Shown here: positions 4,452 through 15,446 of the stretch, piece by piece
Numbering within the stretch: the first letter of the stretch is position 1
Layout: each line of letters opens with the position of its first letter
From: a candidate division WOR-3 bacterium
GTDB taxonomy: Bacteria > Hydrothermota > Hydrothermia > Hydrothermales > Hydrothermaceae
NCBI GenBank assembly: GCA_039803745.1
Contig: JBDRZD010000043.1
Location: 1-15,661, forward strand
Direction of reading: 5' to 3'
DNA length: 15,661 nucleotides
Notes under the pieces: generated by a model
Told to the model about the DNA's origin: nothing
The model's input: only the letters and a program-made list of their open reading frames with translations
Databases searched by the model: none
Made by a program: the position numbers and the translations under genes

Positions 4452-5507
4452 CTAAAAAATTACACAAAAAGGGTCTTCTTCAAGATAATCTTCATAAATT
4501 GCATAAGCCCTTGCTCTTGAACCTCCACATATTTTTTTATATTTACATTTTCCGCATTTCCCCTTTAACAAATCGGTGTCCCTCAGTTCTTTAAAAATTT
4601 TATTATTTTTATAAACAAAAGATAATTTTTCATTTTTTATATTAGAGACCTTCAAATTTAAAAAACCTGATGGATAAATATCGCCCTTATGGGAAACAAA
4701 AACAACTCCATTTCCATCTCTTACTCCAAATCCCAATTTTTTATTTTCCCTTATTACTTCATCAATATTTTTCCCTTTTTTAATCTCTTTTAAAACATAA
4801 AAAACTCTATAAAAGGGTGCCTCTGTGGTTGCAATTTGAAATGGTGCCTCTTTTGATTTTTCATATAAAAATTCAATTATTTCTTTTATTTCATCTTTAG
4901 AAGGTAATTTTAATTCTTTTCCCCTTCCAACAGGGACAATGAAGAATATGCTCCATCTCTTTACAATTTCAGAAAAATTTTCTTTTAAGAAATAATAAAT
5001 TTTTTCAATTTCATTAAAATTTTCCTTTGTAAAAGTTGTATTTACCTGAATGGGTATATTCAATTCCTTTGCAAATTTTAAAGCATTTAATGATATTTCA
5101 AATGTTCCTTCAACGCCTCTAAAACTATCCTGTGCCTCTTTGTTACTCCCGTCAAGACTTATACTCATTGCATACGCTCCTAAATCTTTAATTTTTTTAA
5201 TTTTTTCAAAATTCAAAAGAGGCGAAGTTGTGGGTGCTATTCCAAATGGCAGGTTTATTTTTCTTGCGTATTCAAGTACTTCAAAAATATCTTCTCTTTT
5301 TAAAGGGTCTCCACCCGAAATAATTAAATTTGAACCAAGATTTTTTATATCATCAAAAAATTTTTTAATTTCATTTATATTAAGTTCTTCAGGGCTTCTT
5401 TCAGGAATTGCTTCTGCCCTGCAATGCTTGCATTTTAAATCGCAGGCAATTGTTATTTCATAATAAACATTTATTGGTTTTTCATAAATAAATTCTATTT
5501 TATCCAT
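4452..5507 (-). CDS. radical SAM/SPASM protein, AhbD/NirJ-like (resembles TIGR04053 family)
   Basis: CDLKCKHC (CX3CX2C), SGGDPL, SISLDG, C-terminal [24 protein letters not shown]; last gene of the hem operon. Confidence 0.8.
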
Positions 5508-6469
5508 TTTATAGCATCCCTTGCATGATATGTTAAAATTAAATCGGCACCTGCTCTTTTAATAGATGTTAAAATTTCAAGAACAACTTCTTTTTCATCT
5601 ATCCATCCATTTAAACTTGCAGCCTTTACCATTGAATATTCACCTGAGACATTGTATGCAGCGAGAGGTAAATTAAACTTTTCTTTTATTCTATAGATTA
5701 TATCAAGATAGGGGAGTGCAGGTTTTACCATTAATATATCCGCCCCCTCTTCAAAATCAAGTTCTGCTTCTAAAATTGCTTCCCTTGCATTTGCAGGGTC
5801 CATCTGATATGTTTTTCTATTTCCAAATTTTGGAGCCGATTCTGCTGCTTCTCTAAAAGGCGCATAAAAGGAAGAAGCATATTTAACTGAATAGGATAAA
5901 ATCAATATGTTTTTAAATCCATTTTCATCAAGTGCCTTTCTTATTGCCTTTACCTGCCCATCCATCATTCCAGAAGGTGCAACAATATCCGCACCTGCTT
6001 TTGCCTGTGAAATTGCAATTTTTCCTAAATATTCAAGTGTTAAGTCATTATCAACTTCACCATCCTTTAGAATTCCACAATGTCCATGGGAAGTATATTC
6101 GCACATACATAGATCAGTAATTATTATCATTTCCTTTTCATATTTTTTTATCTCCCTAACAGCCCTTTGAATTATACCTTCATCTAAAAAGGCTTCGGTC
6201 CCAAATTCGTCTTTTTTTTCCGGTATCCCAAATAAAATTATTGCTTTTATTCCTTCCTCTTTTATTTTCTGAACCTCCTCAACAAGCAAATCAATTGAAT
6301 ATCTATATTGCCCGGGCATTGAGGGAATTTCTTCTTTTTTATTTTTACCCGGAATAACAAATAAAGGGTAAATAAGGTCATCAGGAGATAATTTTGTTTC
6401 CCTAAGAATGCTTCTTATATTTTCATTTATTCTTTTCCTCCTGAGTCTTAAATATGGAAACTCCTTCAT
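5495..6469 (-). CDS. hemB: porphobilinogen synthase (Zn-binding type)
   Basis: [54 protein letters not shown] upstream. Confidence 0.98.
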
Positions 6470-7505
6470 TTTTTCCCTCCTTTTTTATCAAATCTTTTAT
6501 AATTTCATCAGTTATAAACTTTTTAGGAGTTAAGTAAACTTTAAAACCTTTATTTTCTATAAAAGAACCTGTTATTTTCCCAATTGTTATAATTCTTTTA
6601 TTTTTTAAAAAATTTTCACCTATCTCCAAAAATATTTCAAAAAGTCTTGGACTTGTAAATACAAAATCCGTGACTTTTTTAAGCAAAGGCAAAAAAATAT
6701 CTATTTTTTTCTTTTCTTCTTTCACCATCTCATAGATTTTCATTTCTTTTACATAAAATCCCATTTTTTCTAAATTTTCTTTAAGTATTTTTCTTCCTTC
6801 TGTTCTTAAAATTAAAACCCTTTTATTTTTATTTTCCAGTTTTTCAAAAATTTTTAATATGCCTTCTTGAGTATATTCATCCGGGACTATTGAAGAGAAT
6901 CCAATTTTTTCAATTTCTTTTGCGGTTTCAGGTCCTATTGATATTATTTTTTTATTTTTAAGAATTTCAAAAGTTTCTTTTAAAGAAAAATTTTCCTTTA
7001 AGGCATAAATTCCTCTTTTACTTGTAAAGATTATATAATCAAAATCTTCTTTTAAGTCTTTTATATCTAAATTTATTTTTTTAAATTTTAAAAGCGGTAA
7101 TGGAATGCTTTTTGCTCCAAGGGATTCAATTTTATAGGAAAATTCAAGGGCATCGGGTAATGGTCTTGTAATACAGAATATTCTTTTTTTTAAAATTCCA
7201 TCAGGTAGGTTATATTCCATATAAATTTCTCTAAAGTTTATTTTTTTCTTTTTTAAAAATTCTTTTAAATTTTCCTTATTTTTTCTTTCTCCTAATAAAA
7301 ACAATTTACTTTTTTCATTTTCTTTAAATTTTATATCTTCAAATCTTATCCATTCAGAATCTTTTCCTGCCCATAAAATTCCATAAGGAGATTTTCTATC
7401 AAAATATATTTCTTCAAATTTTGAAATAAAATTCCAGATTTCTGAAAATAAGACAAAACTATCAGTCTTTACATGAAGTATGAAAATTTCATTTAATGAA
7501 TTCAT
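6423..7505 (-). CDS. hemD: uroporphyrinogen-III synthase with ~105-aa N-terminal extension
   Basis: [32 protein letters not shown]; located between hemC and hemB. Confidence 0.88.
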
Positions 7506-8343
7506 AAACTTTTTCCAGAATTTCCTCTTTATTTTTCCCTCTAAACATAGCCTTTTTCACTTTATCATCTTTAACATACATCATTTTCAAAATTATTTCA
7601 GAACCATTTATCTCTGCATAACATCCAAATGGAACAGCACATCCACCTCCTATTTTTTTAAGTATTTCTCTTTCAATATTGACTTCTGTTTCAACTTCTT
7701 TATTGTTTATTTCCCTTAAAATTTGAACAAAAGGGGAATTCTTTAATGTTTCAACGCATATTGCACCCTGACCAGGAGAAGGTGGAAAATCTTCAATTGG
7801 CAATTCAATATAGGGAACATTTAAAGAGAGTCTTTTAATAGCACATTTTGCCATAACTATTCCTTCATATTCTCCATTTTCCCACTTTTTTATCCTTGTT
7901 TCAATATTTCCTCTTAAAGGTAAAAATTTAAAATCAGGCCTTATTATTTTTAAAAAATATTCCCTTCTTTTACTACCTGTCCCAATTCTTGCATTTTGAG
8001 GTATTTCCTCAATTTTTTTATAATTACATACAATAACATCAACTGGTTCTTCTCTTTCAATATAAAAAATCATAAAATTTTCAGAAATTTCTGTTGGGAC
8101 ATCTTTAGCACTATGAACAGCAATATCTATTTCATTTCTGAGTAGGCTTTCTTCAAGCGCTTTAACAAATATTCCTTTTTCTCTTAATTTATAAAGGGGT
8201 GTTTTTTTATCAATATCACCTTTTGTTTTAATTGGAACAAAAATTGTCTCAAATCCTTTATCCTTTAAAATTTTAATAACTTTTTCAGTTTGTATCCTGC
8301 TTAATTTAGAAGAGCGAGCCCCTACCCTTATTTTTTTAACCAT
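7489..8343 (-). CDS. hemC: hydroxymethylbilane synthase
   Basis: GARSSKLS, TKGD, KGIFVK, AVHSAKDVP, LRGN, PGQGA, GGCAVP (cofactor Cys). Confidence 0.97.
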   Translation of the reverse strand: MVKKIRVGARSSKLSRIQTEKVIKILKDKGFETIFVPIKTKGDIDKKTPLYKLREKGIFVKALEESLLRNEIDIAVHSAKDVPTEISENFMIFYIEREEPVDVIVCNYKKIEEIPQNARIGTGSKRREYFLKIIRPDFKFLPLRGNIETRIKKWENGEYEGIVMAKCAIKRLSLNVPYIELPIEDFPPSPGQGAICVETLKNSPFVQILREINNKEVETEVNIEREILKKIGGGCAVPFGCYAEINGSEIILKMMYVKDDKVKKAMFRGKNKEEILEKVYEFIK

Positions 8344-9476
8344 TTATCAATGAATTCTTCAACAGGTTTTCCACTTCTTAACGATTTTAATACTGGATAA
8401 ATTAAAAATTTTTTTAACTTTTCATAACTTATTTTATTATTTTCACCATTCCTTTTTATAATTTCATTAACTTTTTTATCAACAAAATCAAGAACCTCAA
8501 TTATTTTTTCCTCTTTTAAAATCCATTTTTCAAACTCTTTCCCTTCTTTTTTTGCTCTTAATTTAACATACGAACTTATTTCCTCTTTTTCCTTAATCCT
8601 TTCTTCTATTACCTTTTTAAACTCATCTATTCCATGATATATTATATTGTTTAACTTTTTAATTTCTTTTGATACATTTTCAGGGAATCCGAGATCAATT
8701 ATAATTTTTGGGTTGCTCTTCTCTTCAATATGGTGAGGGTAAATTAAAGGGTTTTTTGAATTTGTTGCAAAGATAACTGCTTCATATTCTTTAATTAATA
8801 ATGGCAGTGTTTTTTCATTATATAATACAACATCAAGATGGGCATGCTCTTCAAGAAATTTTTTCCTTTCTTCACTTTTTGTTGCAATTTTAAAAGGTAT
8901 TTTATTTTTAACAAGATATCTTGATATTGCTATCCCCATCTCACCTGTGCCAACAAGAAGCACATTTAAATTCTTAATATCTTCATTTAACTCCCTTATA
9001 TATATTGAGACAATTGCAGGTATTGATAAGGAGCCCTTCTGGAGTTCTGTTTCTTCTCTTATCTTTTTAGAAATGGATAGAGCCTTTTCAAAAGTTTTAC
9101 CAAGATATTTACCTATCCATCCCTTTTTCTTTGCCTCAATGTAAGCCTTTTTTACCTGTCCCTGAACCTCAGGCTCACCAATTGCAGGGGAATCAGAGCC
9201 TGTTGCAACAAGAACAAGATGTTCAAAAATTTCTGAAGGTTGAATAAGGATTTCCGCGTAGTGAATTAAATCAGAAGGAACAAATTTTTTTATAATCTCA
9301 TCTTTTTTATTTTTCTCTATAAAAAAATAACCTTCAACCCTATAGCATGTAACAAGAAGAACTTTCTCTTTTATAAAAGGGAGATCTTCTTCAATTTTAT
9401 TTTTGAAAATGTTGAAAATTTCTTCTCTTATTTTTACAGGTGCTTTTCTATGGGTGAAGAGAACACCAAGAAGCAT
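8328..9476 (-). CDS. hemA: glutamyl-tRNA reductase; ATG 9476 preferred over TTG 9512
   Basis: HRKAPVKIRE, TCYRVE, GSDS..GEPEVQGQVK, GTGEMG (NADPH binding), DLGFPENV; the tracked TTG 9512 is the -35 box of the promoter. Confidence 0.92.
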   Translation of the reverse strand: MLLGVLFTHRKAPVKIREEIFNIFKNKIEEDLPFIKEKVLLVTCYRVEGYFFIEKNKKDEIIKKFVPSDLIHYAEILIQPSEIFEHLVLVATGSDSPAIGEPEVQGQVKKAYIEAKKKGWIGKYLGKTFEKALSISKKIREETELQKGSLSIPAIVSIYIRELNEDIKNLNVLLVGTGEMGIAISRYLVKNKIPFKIATKSEERKKFLEEHAHLDVVLYNEKTLPLLIKEYEAVIFATNSKNPLIYPHHIEEKSNPKIIIDLGFPENVSKEIKKLNNIIYHGIDEFKKVIEERIKEKEEISSYVKLRAKKEGKEFEKWILKEEKIIEVLDFVDKKVNEIIKRNGENNKISYEKLKKFLIYPVLKSLRSGKPVEEFIDKWLKK

Positions 9477-9482
9477 AGTTTT

Positions 9483-9512
9483 ATTATATGGAAATTTTGA
9501 ATTTTTTTTCAA
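9483..9512 (-). promoter_or_regulatory. sigma70-type promoter of hem operon (leaderless geometry)
   Basis: TTGAAA (9512-9507), 18 bp, TATAAT (9488-9483), 6 nt, ATG 9476. Confidence 0.75.
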
Positions 9513-9518
9513 TATAAT
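9489..9518 (+). promoter_or_regulatory. sigma70-type promoter of the chelatase gene, overlapping the hem promoter
   Basis: TGGAAA (9489-9494), 18 bp, TATAAT (9513-9518), 6 nt, ATG 9525. Confidence 0.6.
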
Positions 9519-9524
9519 TTATTT

Positions 9525-10028
9525 ATGAAAAAAGTTTTAATTTTAATAGGACATGGTGATATTCCTTATGATTTTCCAAAAGAGAAACTAAAAGAATATT
9601 TCAAGTTAAGAACCTTGCAAAGGAGCGGTTCAATAAATGAAGAAGAAAAAAGATATTTTTTAAAACTTGAAGAGGAATTGAAAAAATGGAAAAGGAATAA
9701 ATCAAATGATTATCATTATTTTAATATAAAGAAATTTTCAAAATATTTGCAAAAAGAAATTAATATAAAGGTTGATTTTGCCTTTAACGAGTTTTGCTCT
9801 CCAGATATTAAAGAAAAATTTGAAGAAATAAAAGATAAATATGATGAATTTTATTTTTTACCAACTATGATATTTAGTGGAAAACATACTCATTTTGAAA
9901 TAAAGGAAAAAATTGAAGATTTAAAAAAAGAAAATCCTGATAAAAAAATTTTTTATGTTTATCCCTTAAAAGAAGATTTGGTAAAAAAATTTTTTGTTGG
10001 AATTATAAAAGAATTTATTAATAAATGA
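9525..10028 (+). CDS. small CbiX/SirB-family class II chelatase
   Basis: LILIGHG (His1), AFNEFCSPDI, LPTMIFSGKH (His2); divergent from hemA; metal and substrate not determinable. Confidence 0.8.
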   Translation: MKKVLILIGHGDIPYDFPKEKLKEYFKLRTLQRSGSINEEEKRYFLKLEEELKKWKRNKSNDYHYFNIKKFSKYLQKEINIKVDFAFNEFCSPDIKEKFEEIKDKYDEFYFLPTMIFSGKHTHFEIKEKIEDLKKENPDKKIFYVYPLKEDLVKKFFVGIIKEFINK

Positions 10029-10506
10029 ATTTGACCATTTCTTCTTTTTTTCTCCTTGGAGGAGGCTCAGGGATAAATTCAGGATAGCCAACAGGTGTAA
10101 TTGTTGCAATATAATGTTCTTTTGGTATATTAAGTTTTTCTTTAACATCTTCTCTATCCATTGCTGCTATCCAGCACGTTCCAATTCCATAACACCATGC
10201 AGCAAGCATAAAATGGTATGCGGCAATGTGTCCATCTTCATATACTCTTTTTGTTTTACTTGGATCAACGCATATTGCAACAGCCATTGGAGCGTTTTTT
10301 AAAGGTAAGCTGTATTCTCTTATATGTGCGAGGAAGTTCAAAATTTCCCTATTTTTTATAACTATATAATAATAAGATTGGGAGTTTTTTGATGTTGGAG
10401 AGAATCTACATATTTCAAAAATTTTCCACAAGATCTTTTCAGGTACTTCATCTTTTTTAAAATTTCTTATACTCCTTCTTGTTAACAAGAGTTTTCTTCC
10501 TGTCAT
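10018..10506 (-). CDS. nitroreductase-family flavoprotein
   Basis: RRSIRNF, SPTSKNSQ, MLAAWCYGIGTCWI, TPVGYP; GGAGG upstream; ATGA overlap with ispG. Confidence 0.92.
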   Translation of the reverse strand: MTGRKLLLTRRSIRNFKKDEVPEKILWKIFEICRFSPTSKNSQSYYYIVIKNREILNFLAHIREYSLPLKNAPMAVAICVDPSKTKRVYEDGHIAAYHFMLAAWCYGIGTCWIAAMDREDVKEKLNIPKEHYIATITPVGYPEFIPEPPPRRKKEEMVKFIY

Positions 10507-12250: not shown

Positions 12251-13570
12251 ATGAGAAGAAGAGTTTTGATTTTAGGTGCTGCTGGAAGAGATTTTCACAA
12301 TTTCAATATTTTTTTTAAAGATAAGGAAGAATATGAAGTTGTAGGTTTTACTGCAACGCAGATTCCAAATATAGAGGGAAGGGTTTATCCGCCAATTCTT
12401 GCAGGTAAACTTTATCCAGATGGAATAAACATTTATTCAGAAGAAGAACTTGAAAAATTAATTGAAGAATTAAAAGTTGATATATGTGTATTTTCCTATT
12501 CTGATGTTTCCCATGAACATGTTATGCATATTGCATCAAGGTGCCTTTCAAAGGGGGCTGATTTCTGGCTATTAGGACCTAAATCAACAATGCTTAAATC
12601 AAAAAAACCTGTTATAAGTGTATGTGCTGTAAGAACAGGATGCGGGAAAAGCCAGACTTCAAGAAAAGTTGCAAGGATTTTAAAGGAAAAGGGAAAGAAT
12701 GTGGCAATTGTAAGACATCCAATGCCTTATGGTGATTTAAAAAAGCAGGTTATCCAAAAGTTTGAAAATATTTCTGACCTTGACAAATATAATTGCACAA
12801 TAGAGGAAAGAGAAGAATTTGAACCCCATTTAAGATATGGATTTAAAGTTTTTGCGGGTGTTGATTATGAAAGAATTTTAAAAGAGGCTGAAAAGGATGC
12901 GGATATTATTTTATGGGATGGGGGGAATAATGATTTTCCATTTTATGAGCCTTCTCTTCATATTGTGGTTACTGACCCTTTAAGGGCAGGGCATGAAGAA
13001 AAATATCATCCTGGTGAGGTAAATATAAGGATGGCAGATGTTGTAATAATAAATAAGATAGATTCAGCACCCATTGAAAAAATAAATATTTTGAGAGAGA
13101 ATATAAGGAAACTTAATAAAAAGGCAAGAATAATTGAGGCAGCATCACCAATATTTGTTTCTAATGCTGAAAAGATAAGGAACAAAAAAGTTTGTATTGT
13201 TGAGGATGGACCAACTTTAACCCATGGTGAGATGGCTTTTGGTGCTGGGTATGTTGCTGCATTAAAATTTGGAGCAAAAGAGATTGTTTCACCAAAACCT
13301 TATGCCTGTGGTAGTATAAAACAGACTTTTGAAAAGTATCCGCAGGTTGAACTTGTTTTACCTGCAATGGGATATGGAAAAGAACAGATAAAGGACCTTG
13401 AAGATACTTTAAATAATGTTCCATGTGATATTATTATAAGTGCAACACCTGTTGACCTTTCAAAAATTTTGAAAACAAATAAAGAAATTTTAAGAGTTTA
13501 TTATGAATTACAGGAAATTGGGAGCCCGAATCTTGAAGAAATACTGGATGAATTTCTTGAAAAAATATGA
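12251..13570 (+). CDS. COG2403 P-loop enzyme (cyclic 2,3-diphosphoglycerate synthase-like; probable arginine synthetase ArcE family)
   Basis: GAAGRDFHNFN, AVRTGCGKS (Walker A-like), RHPMPYGDL, TIEEREE, WDGGNND, EDGPTLTHG, LPAMGY; family recognised from memory. Confidence 0.75.
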   Translation: MRRRVLILGAAGRDFHNFNIFFKDKEEYEVVGFTATQIPNIEGRVYPPILAGKLYPDGINIYSEEELEKLIEELKVDICVFSYSDVSHEHVMHIASRCLSKGADFWLLGPKSTMLKSKKPVISVCAVRTGCGKSQTSRKVARILKEKGKNVAIVRHPMPYGDLKKQVIQKFENISDLDKYNCTIEEREEFEPHLRYGFKVFAGVDYERILKEAEKDADIILWDGGNNDFPFYEPSLHIVVTDPLRAGHEEKYHPGEVNIRMADVVIINKIDSAPIEKINILRENIRKLNKKARIIEAASPIFVSNAEKIRNKKVCIVEDGPTLTHGEMAFGAGYVAALKFGAKEIVSPKPYACGSIKQTFEKYPQVELVLPAMGYGKEQIKDLEDTLNNVPCDIIISATPVDLSKILKTNKEILRVYYELQEIGSPNLEEILDEFLEKI

Positions 13571-14205
13571 AAGAATATTTAATTTCTATTCTTGCTTTTA
13601 TTAGTTTTTCAATCTCTTTATATTTTTCTTTAATTAATTCTCCGCCTGAAGAAAAAATGGGTGAACTCATCAGAATTCTTTATATTCATGTTCCCTTTGC
13701 GTGGTATTCTTTTGTTTCATTTACAATTACATTTATATGTAGTATCTTATATTTTTTAAAAAGAGAGGATAGATTTGATAAACTTGGAGCATCAGGAGCA
13801 GAAATTGGCTTTATTTTTATTACAATTGCAATTTTAACAGGCTCTTTATGGGCAAAATCTGTTTGGGGGGTTTTCTGGGTATGGGAACCAAGGCTCACAA
13901 CAACCCTTATCTTATGGTTTTTATATTTATCCTATCTTTTACTTAGAAAATTTATTGAAATACCTGATAAAAGAGCAAGAATTTCAGGAGTTCTTGGAAT
14001 AATATTTTATGTAGATATACCAATTATTTATTTTTCAGTTTATTTATGGAGGAGTGTTCATCCATTAATTTTTAAATTAGGTAAAATTGGAATTGAAACT
14101 CCAATGCAAATTGCACTTTTTTCAAATTTAGTTTCCTTTCTTTTTTTATTTTTGCTAATTTTTGATTTAAGATATAAAATTTATTTAAAGGAGAAAATTC
14201 CATGA
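13567..14205 (+). CDS. ccmC: heme exporter / cytochrome c biogenesis protein C
   Basis: Six hydrophobic segments, YIHVP (His1), WGVFWVWEPRLT (WWD motif), WRSVHP (His2). Confidence 0.92.
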   Translation: MKEYLISILAFISFSISLYFSLINSPPEEKMGELIRILYIHVPFAWYSFVSFTITFICSILYFLKREDRFDKLGASGAEIGFIFITIAILTGSLWAKSVWGVFWVWEPRLTTTLILWFLYLSYLLLRKFIEIPDKRARISGVLGIIFYVDIPIIYFSVYLWRSVHPLIFKLGKIGIETPMQIALFSNLVSFLFLFLLIFDLRYKIYLKEKIP

Positions 14206-14300
14206 AATTCATTTTTCTTTATATTGCCTATTTAATTGGAATTGTTGGAATTTTAATGTATCTTATATATCTTCACAAAAAAATAGATAGAATTAAATAA
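14202..14300 (+). CDS. ccmD: CcmD-like small membrane protein (not in ORF track)
   Basis: MKFIFLYIAYLIGIVGILMYLIYLHKKIDRIK (32 aa): AY motif, single TM helix, basic tail; ATGA overlap with ccmC and AAGGAG at 14188-14193. Confidence 0.8.
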   Translation: MKFIFLYIAYLIGIVGILMYLIYLHKKIDRIK

Positions 14301-15446
14301 TTATTCTTTTTTCTCTTCTTCCGCCACTTTTTCTTCCTCTTTCTTTTCCTCTTCTATTTCTTCCTCTTCTTCAGGAGCCAGAAGGTCTATCTCATCTTTT
14401 TTCTTATAAAGAATTATGAAAATTAAATTGTTGCCACTATAAAACATTGAAAGATAATAGGCTAAAACCATAAAGATTAAAAGATAGCCAATAAAGCCAA
14501 GGATATAGGAAATTGCTGCATGGAATCCTGAAAGTTTCAGAAATGATGGAATCATAACAATTTCCTCTATTCCAAGGAATTTAAAGTAGGATGAAATATT
14601 TGCTAAAAATGGATAGGAAGGCAAGAATGCCCATGCATTGTTGAGTATATTTAAAAATTTTTCCCCCATAAGCCATTTTGCAGATAAAACCCATATGCCT
14701 ATACCTATTGCTTTTCCCACAAAGAATGTAAATATACTTCCTGCTACAAACATTGTGAAGAAAAGAAGGATTTCATATACAAATAGTCTCCATGGTTGTT
14801 CATTTAAAGTTGAAAAGATTTCAAAAAGGGTATCAAATGTATCATTACTTGTTGTTCCAACTATTGATGGAGAAATGAATAAAGAAACCAAAAATGAAAC
14901 AAGTAAATAGACAATAAAAAGACAAACAAAGAATGCAGGTATTACAAAAATTATAAAAAATATCTCACCAAAATATGGTATTTTATTTATTGCCCCATAA
15001 ATTACTCCTGAAAGCAGGATTAACCCAACTATTAAGAGAATTGAAATTGGAGCGAAAAATGAAGCCAATCCTTTTGTGAAGGCAAATTTTAAAGCCTCCT
15101 TTATTTCATAAAATTCATCCCCTTTCAATTGCTCAAAATGGACTTTTGAAACTGCTGTTCCAAAAATAAAAATAAAGAATGCAAATATGAGGATGCCTAT
15201 TATATAAATTATCTTTGCCCAAGAATAAATTTCACCAAAACCAAGGATTGGTAATAGATGATATTGATCCCATAATTCCTTAAAGGTATATCCGCTTAAA
15301 ACACCAGCAATGTATGTGAAGATTGAATAGAAGATGCTGCCAATAAGAATTCCGAGAAACATTATCCATATTTTTTTAATTGATAATCCGAATCTTGCTG
15401 CTCTGAATACATCTTTAAAATTATAATGCAATTTTACAGGCATCAT
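14301..15446 (-). CDS. uncharacterised polytopic membrane protein with acidic C-terminal tail
   Basis: About 6-7 long hydrophobic segments, E-rich tail; own promoter and AGGAGG (15454-15449), spacing favours second ATG at 15443. Confidence 0.85.
   Translation of the reverse strand: MMPVKLHYNFKDVFRAARFGLSIKKIWIMFLGILIGSIFYSIFTYIAGVLSGYTFKELWDQYHLLPILGFGEIYSWAKIIYIIGILIFAFFIFIFGTAVSKVHFEQLKGDEFYEIKEALKFAFTKGLASFFAPISILLIVGLILLSGVIYGAINKIPYFGEIFFIIFVIPAFFVCLFIVYLLVSFLVSLFISPSIVGTTSNDTFDTLFEIFSTLNEQPWRLFVYEILLFFTMFVAGSIFTFFVGKAIGIGIWVLSAKWLMGEKFLNILNNAWAFLPSYPFLANISSYFKFLGIEEIVMIPSFLKLSGFHAAISYILGFIGYLLIFMVLAYYLSMFYSGNNLIFIILYKKKDEIDLLAPEEEEEIEEEKKEEEKVAEEEKKE

Follow-up and report, generated by a model that had tools for sequence, protein, structure and literature searches.

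A CbiX-type chelatase as candidate for iron insertion in a probable oxygen-independent, coproporphyrin-type heme route of Hydrothermales

The window considered here is a stretch of 15,661 nucleotides from a candidate division WOR-3 bacterium of the order Hydrothermales (GenBank assembly GCA_039803745.1, contig JBDRZD010000043.1), corresponding to contig C43 (15.7 kb, about 28% G+C) of the genome designated G000. It contains a radical S-adenosylmethionine (SAM)/SPASM gene, hereafter rSAM, followed by hemB, hemD, hemC and hemA in one overlapping string, which stands back to back with the gene of a 167-residue chelatase of the CbiX family. The reading that we consider probable, with moderate confidence, is that this bacterium makes heme b by an oxygen-independent route of the coproporphyrin type, in which the CbiX-type protein, a homodimeric class II chelatase, replaces the ferrochelatase HemH/CpfC, the AhbD-like rSAM enzyme serves as decarboxylase, and the porphyrinogen is oxidized by an enzyme other than HemY. 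Coproporphyrinogen III would first be oxidized to coproporphyrin III without oxygen, for which a CopD-like membrane protein and a PNPOx-like FMN protein are the candidates. The CbiX-type homodimer would then insert Fe(II) to give coproheme, with residues R57, N61 and D62 of a two-helix insertion placed at the dimer cleft, and the AhbD-like enzyme would finally turn two coproheme propionates into vinyls, yielding heme b, which would feed CcmC and the multiheme cytochromes. The last step is proposed because of homology and of the place of rSAM genes in the hemE-hemH-hemY clusters of relatives.

A coproporphyrin-dependent pathway with AhbD instead of ChdC is already in print (Dailey et al., 2015, as related in the available text of PMC10548856 and PMC13564367). 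The window lineage resembles it in a route through HemE and in an AhbD-type gene that stands among heme genes without ahbA/B/C, relatives of the class having such genes in hemE-hemH-hemY clusters, some together with ChdC; it differs from it in that HemH/CpfC and HemY/CgoX are missing from the window's order and a CbiX-family protein is found at the heme locus. An earlier note on this DNA had suggested an undescribed hybrid route with the CbiX-like protein as coproporphyrin ferrochelatase and the rSAM enzyme as coproheme decarboxylase. Comparative genomics makes this pair of roles the leading reading, that of the chelatase still by inference, but the route is a variant of the coproporphyrin route and not a hybrid with the siroheme route, and an AhbD-like coproheme decarboxylase is not new: the accessible parts of two papers place ahbD-type genes beside hemY, hemH and hemQ (PMC10548856) and AhbD in organisms without other Ahb enzymes (PMC13564367). 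The note had also overlooked the missing porphyrinogen oxidase, for which two candidates lie outside the window. A ferrochelatase of the CbiX type that serves heme b was not found in the literature, in a search whose coverage did not extend to the supplementary gene tables of Dailey 2015 and the 2017 review, where such genomes may be listed.

Heme Biosynthesis Genes of the Genome and Its Relatives

With 100 contigs and a total of 1.67 Mb, the assembly of G000 reaches a completeness of 93.48%. It was compared with 40 relatives of its class (41 genomes in all), among which 11 genomes, G000 included, form the window's order (families f1 and f2), and with a phylum sample of 272 genomes. By family matches, HemA, HemB, HemC and HemD in the window and HemL and HemE on other contigs lead from glutamyl-tRNA to coproporphyrinogen III. 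The hemL gene (contig C42) is 54.5% identical to the copy of a relative, and hemE (contig C79), located downstream of malQ and cut by the contig end, matches PF01208 with 296.3 bits and TIGR01464 with 293.5 bits (cut-off 302.95). Heme is clearly needed, because ccmC is present together with eight open reading frames (ORFs) containing at least two CXXCH motifs (17, 14, 9, 9, 9, 8, 4 and 4, respectively).

The usual enzymes for the remaining steps were not found. The ferrochelatase family PF00762 (HemH/CpfC/PpfC) gave zero matches in G000 genome-wide, the chelatase gene of the window included; there was no match to ChdC or to the AhbA/B domain PF17805, and only scraps of 19-24 bits to HemY and HemN. 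Searches of G000 by tblastn with the class's own HemH (three queries) and ChdC (one query) returned nothing, and with HemY (two queries) only one match of 43 residues (38 bits). The window chelatase is the sole CbiX match of the genome (51.7 bits in a six-frame search), and no further chelatase family was found among those searched, CbiK and CobN not being among them. AhbC was not found in G000 either, a second radical SAM gene on contig C34 scoring 96.9 bits against the AhbC cut-off of 650. This 341-residue radical SAM/SPASM protein (L009:400-3938) reaches 149 bits on the AhbD model, its four neighbors belong to no NCBIfam family, and the cassette may be devoted to peptide maturation.

The siroheme-dependent (Ahb) pathway is not represented in G000, with no match to CobA, AhbA/B or AhbC, and from the reported coproporphyrin-dependent pathway HemE was found, CgoX (HemY type) and CpfC (HemH type) were not. 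A complete canonical gene set elsewhere in the genome was what the earlier note had held to speak against its route, and the search for one did not refute it: hemE and hemL do lie elsewhere, cobA, ahbA/B, ahbC, hemN, hemY, hemH and chdC were not found, and sirC was not searched.

The same pattern extends to the whole order, where HemH and HemY occur in 0 of 11 genomes each, five of these genomes being 95-96% complete in 20 to 100 contigs. HemE, the TIGR04053-type rSAM and the PNPOx-like protein are each present in nine of these genomes; eight of the 11 encode the CopD-like protein and seven the CbiX-type chelatase. Two genomes, G006 and G009, lack all these genes together, with the exception of a weak CbiX-type match in G009 (E 2.9e-4) that contains an in-frame TAG stop. 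The chelatase gene is located head to head with hemA in G000, G001, G003 and G004, as well as on the metagenome contigs L066 and L067, and head to head with hemL in G005 and G007; it is divergent to one or the other in six of the seven order genomes that carry it. A single contig of G001 bears the chelatase gene and, divergently, hemA-C-D-B-rSAM-PNPOx-like-CopD-like-hemE. In the phylum, 13 of the 272 genomes have the chelatase family and 11 have HemH, with none having both. A phylum-wide test by means of HemE was uninformative: PF01208 matches of about 165-265 bits occur in 114 of the 272 genomes, frequently as two copies some 5 kb apart, and these matches, mostly in HemH-less genomes, are probably methyltransferase-like paralogues rather than HemE, so that comparing HemE with the union of HemH and CbiX-type genes was impossible outside the class.

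ChdC acts on coproheme. It is present, with HemH not found, in G005 and G007, which have the CbiX-type protein, and in G010, where no chelatase gene was found; these genomes must therefore produce coproheme. For ChdC-bearing, HemH-less genomes, the only chelatase candidate found is the CbiX-type protein. The ChdC proteins of G005 and G007 are 49-50% identical to that of G028, which is encoded in a chdC-hemL-hemE-hemH-hemY cluster. In G007 (L159:4253-5864) and G005 (L158:3376-4987) chdC is followed by a gene for a 332-residue thioredoxin-reductase-like flavoprotein (Pyr_redox_2, 119.9 bits).

The absence of hemH and hemY might be explained by gaps in the assembly, in which case the classical coproporphyrin route would operate. 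The incompleteness of G000 and its 100 contigs, the position of hemE at a contig end, and the fact that hemH and hemY directly follow hemE in relatives of other families are all in line with this; however, neither gene was found in any of the 11 genomes of the order, five of 95-96% completeness among them, and in G004, G007, G008 and G002, where the assembly continues past hemE, a gene other than hemH comes next. This explanation was consequently rejected as the main one and is considered very improbable. In G004 (L047:641-1459) and G002 (L052:634-1482) hemE is followed by the gene of a protein of 272-282 residues, which has a hydrophobic N-terminus and belongs to no Pfam family; it was not found in the G000 assembly, where the hemE contig ends.

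Structure and Relationships of the CbiX-Type Chelatase

A word-index search for the chelatase yielded 8 homologues only, and a contig scan of genomes with a close chelatase alignment only one locus. An exhaustive search of 1.84 billion representatives gave 147 clusters with E values of up to 1e-3 and 57 with values of up to 1e-10; in the Atlas, clusters that show the same features bear the automatic name sirohydrochlorin cobaltochelatase. Curated equivalog models miss the protein (30.4 against 120 bits for CfbA NF033198, and 21.4 against 298 for PRK05782). Among 54 aligned sequences G11 is invariant, and H10, D16, P18, R57, N61, D62, E89, C91, P93, G118, H121, I126, Y144 and P147 are conserved in at least 90%. 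H10 and H121 are invariant in 23 chelatase sequences, and H64 is invariant within the order.

The predicted model (pLDDT 97.3) consists of a chelatase core with two extra helices, at residues 19-34 and 39-53. In Foldseek searches SirB (6jv6, E 1.4e-5) and CfbA (6m2e, E 3.5e-5, TM by target 0.77) were the best matches, followed by CbiXS and, weakly, by ferrochelatases; chains of the Bacillus subtilis ferrochelatase gave E values of 9e-3 to 8e-2 and TM by query of 0.45-0.59, indicating a shared class II fold only. SirB was also the best match in a profile search of the family (E 2.7e-18). In this alignment the stretch around H121 falls on the metal-site sequence 'AAHAKHDIPE' of SirB, and the 'GHG' motif with H10 on 'VGHGS'; the two histidines thus aligned are what we take to be the catalytic, metal-binding pair of SirB and CfbA.

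The chelatase was predicted to form a homodimer with a score of 0.76, against 0.00 for the best control; contacts agree in at least 89% and the pLDDT of the partner is at least 87. Of 30 solved pairs, 20 attained the mark applied, as did 1 of 23 single chains, and the result may reflect likeness to the solved CfbA and CbiX dimers. Residues 9-15, 22-31, 62-64 and 114-121 belong to the predicted interface, which would turn both the histidines and the insertion towards the cleft between the subunits, an arrangement like that of CfbA. Taken together, the results support a class II chelatase fold and a conserved histidine pair and, as a prediction, the pairing of two subunits.

Two groups of characterized proteins are most similar. 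With CfbA and CbiXS (PDB 6m2e, 2dj5 and 1tjn) the window chelatase shares the fold (TM by target 0.71-0.78), the histidine pair and a predicted homodimer with the active site at its interface, but identity is only 13-16%, the window protein has an insertion of about 45 residues forming two helices and containing the conserved R57, N61 and D62, and its genome is without a supply of sirohydrochlorin. SirB of Bacillus (PDB 6jv6 and 5zt7), the best match by sequence profile, is likewise a CbiX-family member and inserts iron; it is, however, a two-domain monomer of about 260 residues, whereas the window chelatase has a single domain predicted to pair, and the pathway to the SirB substrate is absent from the window genome.

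Loss of CobA and the HemD Extension

The HemD protein of the window is 360 residues long, and its HEM4 match starts only at residue 122. In the predicted model (pLDDT 83.8) residues 107-343 match the solved HemD 4es6 (Z 17.7). Residues 5-97 fold like the N-terminal half of uroporphyrin-III methyltransferase, aligning to the first ~113 residues of SUMT 1v9a (Z 10.0, rmsd 2.5, 92 aligned residues) and also matching the methyltransferase part of CysG 1pjq (Z 9.4) and CbiF 2cbf (Z 8.9). The extension gave no Pfam match at E up to 5, residues 1-105 lack the combination of both subdomains and family sequence signal that defines PF00590, and no glycine-rich SAM loop was seen by eye. It is kept in three relatives (58-64% whole-protein identity) and is absent from the HemD of G034. 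CobA was found over the TIGR01469 cut-off in 0 of the 41 genomes of the class. The earlier note's observation that no intact cobA is present was therefore precise, and its supposition that CobA is truly lost is borne out by the class-wide count and by the vestige fused to HemD. Judging from the model, this extension is half a CobA domain, and an ancestral cobA-hemD fusion evidently lost its methyltransferase. CobA-HemD fusion proteins are known in clostridia and sulfate reducers; the window HemD has the same order, a methyltransferase-like domain first and HemD second, but keeps only the first subdomain, of about 95 residues, with no detectable family signal.

Sirohydrochlorin is, to our knowledge, the substrate of every characterized CbiX, SirB or CfbA. 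An ordinary sirohydrochlorin cobalto- or ferrochelatase, serving B12 or siroheme synthesis, would be suggested by the PF01903 match, by SirB and CfbA as the closest solved relatives, and by the automatic naming of the Atlas clusters. Nevertheless, the sole TP_methylase match in G000 is RsmI (TIGR00096, 231.8 bits against a cut-off of 167.9), CobA is lacking in the class and also over the cut-off in 0 of 5 genomes of the lineage g87, which carry the chelatase family, only half a domain is left of the CobA portion of HemD, AhbA/B were not found in G000, and the CfbA model is missed by a wide margin. Since no CobA passes the cut-off and only a vestige of it is left, sirohydrochlorin is unavailable and the chelatase cannot use it; a role in siroheme or B12 synthesis was rejected and is the least probable of the functions considered, scarcely to be expected. 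On contig C4 (L001:2144-3596) rsmI adjoins genes for an archaetidylinositol-phosphate-synthase-like protein and inositol-3-phosphate synthase, which fits the inositol-based solutes or lipids of a thermophile.

The Radical SAM Enzyme

The rSAM enzyme is most similar to the family TIGR04053 (cut-off 395), on which its orthologues score 402.8 (G003), 396.1 (G004) and 395.9 bits (G010), and the enzymes of G034 and G014 480.6 and 408.5 bits, respectively. The motif C22x3C26x2C29 and the C-terminal cysteines C318, C321, C327 and C348 are invariant in six of six aligned sequences. It is 45% and 44% identical, respectively, to copies located inside the hemE-hemH clusters of G034 (hemA-hemC fusion, hemD, hemB, rSAM, hemL, hemE, hemH, hemY) and G014 (hemB-rSAM-PNPOx-like-CopD-like-hemE-hemH-hemL); the order rSAM-hemL-hemE-hemH-hemY was also found in G072, G074 and G078. 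The rSAM gene takes the place of chdC in these heme clusters of relatives. In G020 (L037, C286) hemB, chdC and rSAM follow one another in a row, so that a single heme cluster contains both kinds of coproheme decarboxylase, in keeping with a pair for aerobic and anaerobic conditions. The hemA-hemC fusion of G034 is a single reading frame of 682 residues (L038:13588-15636).

No published function of TIGR04053 was found in the literature search, and comparison with PDB sequences gave distant radical SAM enzymes only and no AhbD structure. After TIGR04053, AhbD (TIGR04545; Methanosarcina barkeri, Desulfovibrio) is the best-scoring named family, sharing the CX3CX2C motif and a cysteine-rich C-terminal SPASM part; the window enzyme, in contrast, is closest to the sister family TIGR04053 and is without ahbA/B/C partners.

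Candidate Oxidases

Two proteins encoded outside the window could oxidize the porphyrinogen. The first is a four-helix membrane protein of 144 residues of the CopD/DUF4149 type (G000 C8:29191-29622), whose frame abuts or overlaps hemE in G001, G004, G005, G007, G008, G010 and G014. The second, a PNPOx-like protein of about 165 residues (60 bits), is encoded beside rSAM in G001, G008 and G014 and gave no match to PDB sequences at E up to 0.01. Both genes lie back to back in G000 and G003, whereas in relatives their place is between rSAM and hemE. From gene neighborhood alone, electron flow from the FMN protein to the small membrane protein would make a reasonable oxygen-independent coproporphyrinogen dehydrogenase. 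At C8:29191-30850 of G000 (L053:5189-6653) the stop codon of the PNPOx-like gene overlaps a bacterioferritin gene (TIGR00754, 164.9 bits), a position that puts an iron store beside candidate heme-pathway genes.

HemJ (PgdH2) presumably shares a Pfam clan with the CopD-like superfamily of the 144-residue protein, which resembles it in being a small membrane protein of four helices, with its gene immediately upstream of hemE in seven genomes, and differs from it by the lack of a PF03653 match. A designation of this protein as HemJ-like was withdrawn, as PF03653 gave 0 matches in G000 at E up to 10, and it is called CopD/DUF4149-like only; Pfam assigned it no family at E up to 5, and CopD matches are weak and occur in relatives only (18-28 bits, cut-off 32.1).

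The same gene set would fit a protoporphyrin order of steps, in which coproporphyrinogen III is the substrate of the rSAM enzyme, as of HemN, and protoporphyrinogen IX that of the CopD-like protein, as of HemJ, while the CbiX-type protein inserts iron into protoporphyrin IX. In favor of this are the superfamily of the 144-residue protein, some of whose nearest Atlas clusters carry PF03653 on 12-59% of their members, and the score of the rSAM enzyme below the AhbD cut-off. Such an order is nonetheless quite improbable, given the failure of PF03653 in the genome, the presence of the coproheme-specific ChdC in G005, G007 and G010 and its adjacency to rSAM in G020, and, combining established knowledge with the available text of PMC10114771, the action of AhbD, NirJ and AhbC, the nearest named families of the rSAM enzyme, on iron tetrapyrroles.

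An extension of the coproporphyrin-type route, needing no oxygen at any terminal step, joins a two-part coproporphyrinogen dehydrogenase, with electrons passing from the PNPOx-like FMN protein to the CopD-like protein, with a homodimeric CbiX-type coproporphyrin ferrochelatase, the cleft of which would be reshaped for a porphyrin by the two-helix insertion, and a TIGR04053 coproheme decarboxylase. Two-domain ferrochelatases are thought to derive from a single-domain ancestor, of which the window chelatase would then be a living example, and the wider family would be directed to porphyrins instead of sirohydrochlorin. This extension is possible, although we hold it only tentatively.

The Wider Chelatase Family and Possible Other Roles

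At least 530 copies of the family were found in a metagenome scan. Among 79 metagenome loci, 22 of which are shorter than 3.1 kb, two lie beside hemA-C-D (53-58% identical) and probably belong to the same order as the window, one lies beside ChdC (191 bits), and 76 have none of twelve heme query families. No conserved neighbor was found for the wider family, the commonest being a class II aldolase-like protein (8 of 58 loci); a TonB-dependent receptor with an HmuY-like protein occurs at 4 loci, and Rieske and cytochrome c genes at three or four. One contig (L117, 412-4311 and 7316-7825) has two copies of the family; after one of them come genes for a TonB-dependent receptor and an HmuY-like protein, which is a heme-uptake setting.

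In a quick tree, possibly distorted by the high AT content of the sequences from the order, a branch with an SH-aLRT of 94 (not starred) has all copies of the order on one side; the outsiders nearest to them are P0010 and P0011, and the g87, ChdC-adjacent and HmuY-adjacent copies form a separate group of 52 rows (support 83). This split allows different roles in the two groups.

Several observations weigh against coproporphyrin as the substrate of the chelatase, or against the route as a whole. According to the accessible part of one study (PMC11568245), neither coproporphyrin III nor protoporphyrin IX was metalated in vitro by CfbA or CbiXS. A porphyrin-using member of the family would therefore need a changed pocket, and the two-helix insertion of the modeled structure is what would most obviously provide it. 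Only 3 of 79 metagenome loci of the wider family lie near heme genes. Five genomes of the g87 lineage, of which only one combines a completeness of at least 90% with a contamination of no more than 5%, carry the family and gave no match to ALAD or CobA; in one of them, G214 (L145:858-2040), the family member directly follows a cation-efflux (CDF) gene. Because these genomes keep the gene in such a setting, the wider family can serve another purpose, and it may deal with metals or finished porphyrins.

Within the order, the chelatase gene of G008 has no heme gene within 1.5 kb, and G002 (75% complete) and G010 (270 contigs, 8% contamination) have HemE and rSAM with no chelatase of either kind found. 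The downstream neighbor of the truncated hemE of G000 is unseen. The rSAM enzyme scores just below the TIGR04053 cut-off and reaches 288.6 bits on AhbD TIGR04545, for which the cut-off is 500, and the CopD-like protein is without the PF03653 match expected of HemJ. The inventory covers the families searched, and HemG, HemF, CgoN, CbiK, CobN and SirC fall outside them; for CgoN (YtpQ), more than 98% of proteins are in Bacillaceae, as stated in the portion of PMC10965808 that was available. Finally, we infer all the late steps.

These findings bear on another possibility, that the CbiX-type protein is a metal chaperone, a heme-iron salvage enzyme, a dechelatase or a heme-binding protein, and that iron is inserted by a protein not yet recognized. 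The rarity of heme genes at the metagenome loci, the heme-uptake neighbors at four of them and the retention of the gene in the g87 genomes agree with such a role, as do the long N-termini of 14 of the 58 metagenome copies, which could be export signals, and the contact of the family profile with the heme-binding protein FetB (9b86, E 1.8e-4). On the other hand, the copies of the order are separated in the tree from the group that contains the g87, ChdC-adjacent and HmuY-adjacent sequences, the order's copy lacks an export signal, keeps the histidine pair and is located head to head with hemA or hemL, and the searches returned no second chelatase family. Another role for the copy of the order is thus judged unlikely, and iron insertion into coproporphyrin III by the CbiX-type protein is preferred.

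Other Features of the Window

The coordinates of the features discussed are given in Table 1. The rSAM-hemB-hemD-hemC-hemA string (4452-9512) has overlaps between neighbors of 13, 47, 17 and 16 bases, respectively. Family matches bore out the six genes, rSAM, hemB, hemD, hemC, hemA and the CbiX-family gene, at the places where the earlier note had put them, and equally its list of heme genes missing from the window: none of the window genes matches hemL, hemE, sirC, ahbA/B/C, hemN, hemY, hemH or chdC. The note had also described overlapping promoters between hemA and the chelatase gene. Promoter-like sites do face each other here, with 11 of 12 consensus positions at 9512-9483(-) and 10 of 12 at 9489-9518(+); over the whole, however, 35 such sites compare with 28 +/- 5.5 in shuffled sequences, which is no enrichment, and the overlapping promoters are therefore consensus matches only. 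For hemA, the ATG at 9467 is a likelier start than the TTG at 9512, since the family match begins at residue 17 and the minus-strand promoter-like site occupies 9512-9483.

Table 1. Positions, strands and supporting matches of features of the window.
Feature	Position	Strand	Evidence or remark
Radical SAM/SPASM, AhbD-like (TIGR04053 type)	4452-5507	-	TIGR04053 393.9 bits; proposed O2-independent coproheme decarboxylase
hemB, porphobilinogen synthase	5495-6469	-	ALAD 508.6 bits; NF006762 516.6 bits
hemD, uroporphyrinogen-III synthase (residues about 107-343) with ~105-residue N-terminal extension	6423-7505	-	HEM4 142 bits on residues 122-336
Predicted CobA vestige (uroporphyrin-III C-methyltransferase, N-terminal subdomain only)	7215-7493	-	Structural match of model
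hemC, hydroxymethylbilane synthase	7489-8343	-	TIGR00212 286.1 bits
hemA, glutamyl-tRNA reductase	8328-9512	-	GlutR_N 88.6 bits; TIGR01035 176 bits, below cut-off 209.55
Divergent intergenic region between hemA and chelatase gene	9468-9524	.	Facing promoter-like sites, consensus matches only
Small class II chelatase, CbiX family, with two-helix insertion (residues about 19-62)	9525-10028	+	PF01903 51 bits (cut-off 22)
Nitroreductase-family flavoprotein	10018-10506	-	PF00881 75.6 bits; convergent with chelatase gene
ccmC	13567-14205	+	Cytochrom_C_asm 113.3 bits; TIGR01191 151.1 bits (cut-off 186)
ccmD-like 32-residue one-helix hydrophobic ORF	14202-14300	+	Overlaps ccmC stop; size and place only

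The window starts, on the plus strand, with rpsT, rnpA, yidD, yidC, jag and mnmE. Downstream of the chelatase gene lie a nitroreductase-family gene, ispG, a DUF2914 gene, the gene of a 439-residue P-loop protein, ccmC, the ccmD-like ORF and the gene of a 381-residue membrane protein. The pair ccmC-ccmD, which the earlier note had taken as a sign of heme use, fits heme delivery to c-type cytochromes, that is, a consumer of heme, with ccmC confirmed and ccmD assigned by size and place only. The P-loop protein (12251-13570, plus strand), whose stop codon overlaps the start of ccmC, matches CobW/HypB/UreG only weakly (23.7 bits) and falls into none of the NCBIfam families; should it be a metal-chaperone-like GTPase, its coupling to ccmC would be unusual. 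The 381-residue multi-pass membrane protein (14301-15446, minus strand) has a glutamate-rich tail and matched no Pfam or NCBIfam family.

The nitroreductase gene directly adjoins the chelatase gene in the window, in G004 and on L067, lies 1.3-1.5 kb off, beyond ispG, on L066 and L013, and was not found within 1.5 kb of the chelatase gene in G005, G007 and G008. Since family f1 is the only one in which it adjoins the chelatase gene or lies no more than 1.5 kb away, it is a weak candidate for the pathway or its oxidase.

Concluding Remarks

A 2026 review states, in the part available, that the enzymes reported for the protoporphyrin-dependent (PPD), siroheme-dependent (AHB) and coproporphyrin-dependent (CPD) pathways cover heme synthesis in all known heme-making organisms (PMC13564367). 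The window's order would be an exception to this at two of the three terminal steps. If the proposed role of the chelatase is correct, the insertion of iron for heme b would have been taken over by a different branch of class II chelatases, and hundreds of genes automatically named sirohydrochlorin cobaltochelatase would be misnamed. Calls of heme auxotrophy based on the absence of hemH from genomes would be wrong for such lineages, and a compact, oxygen-independent enzyme set would be available for heme production.

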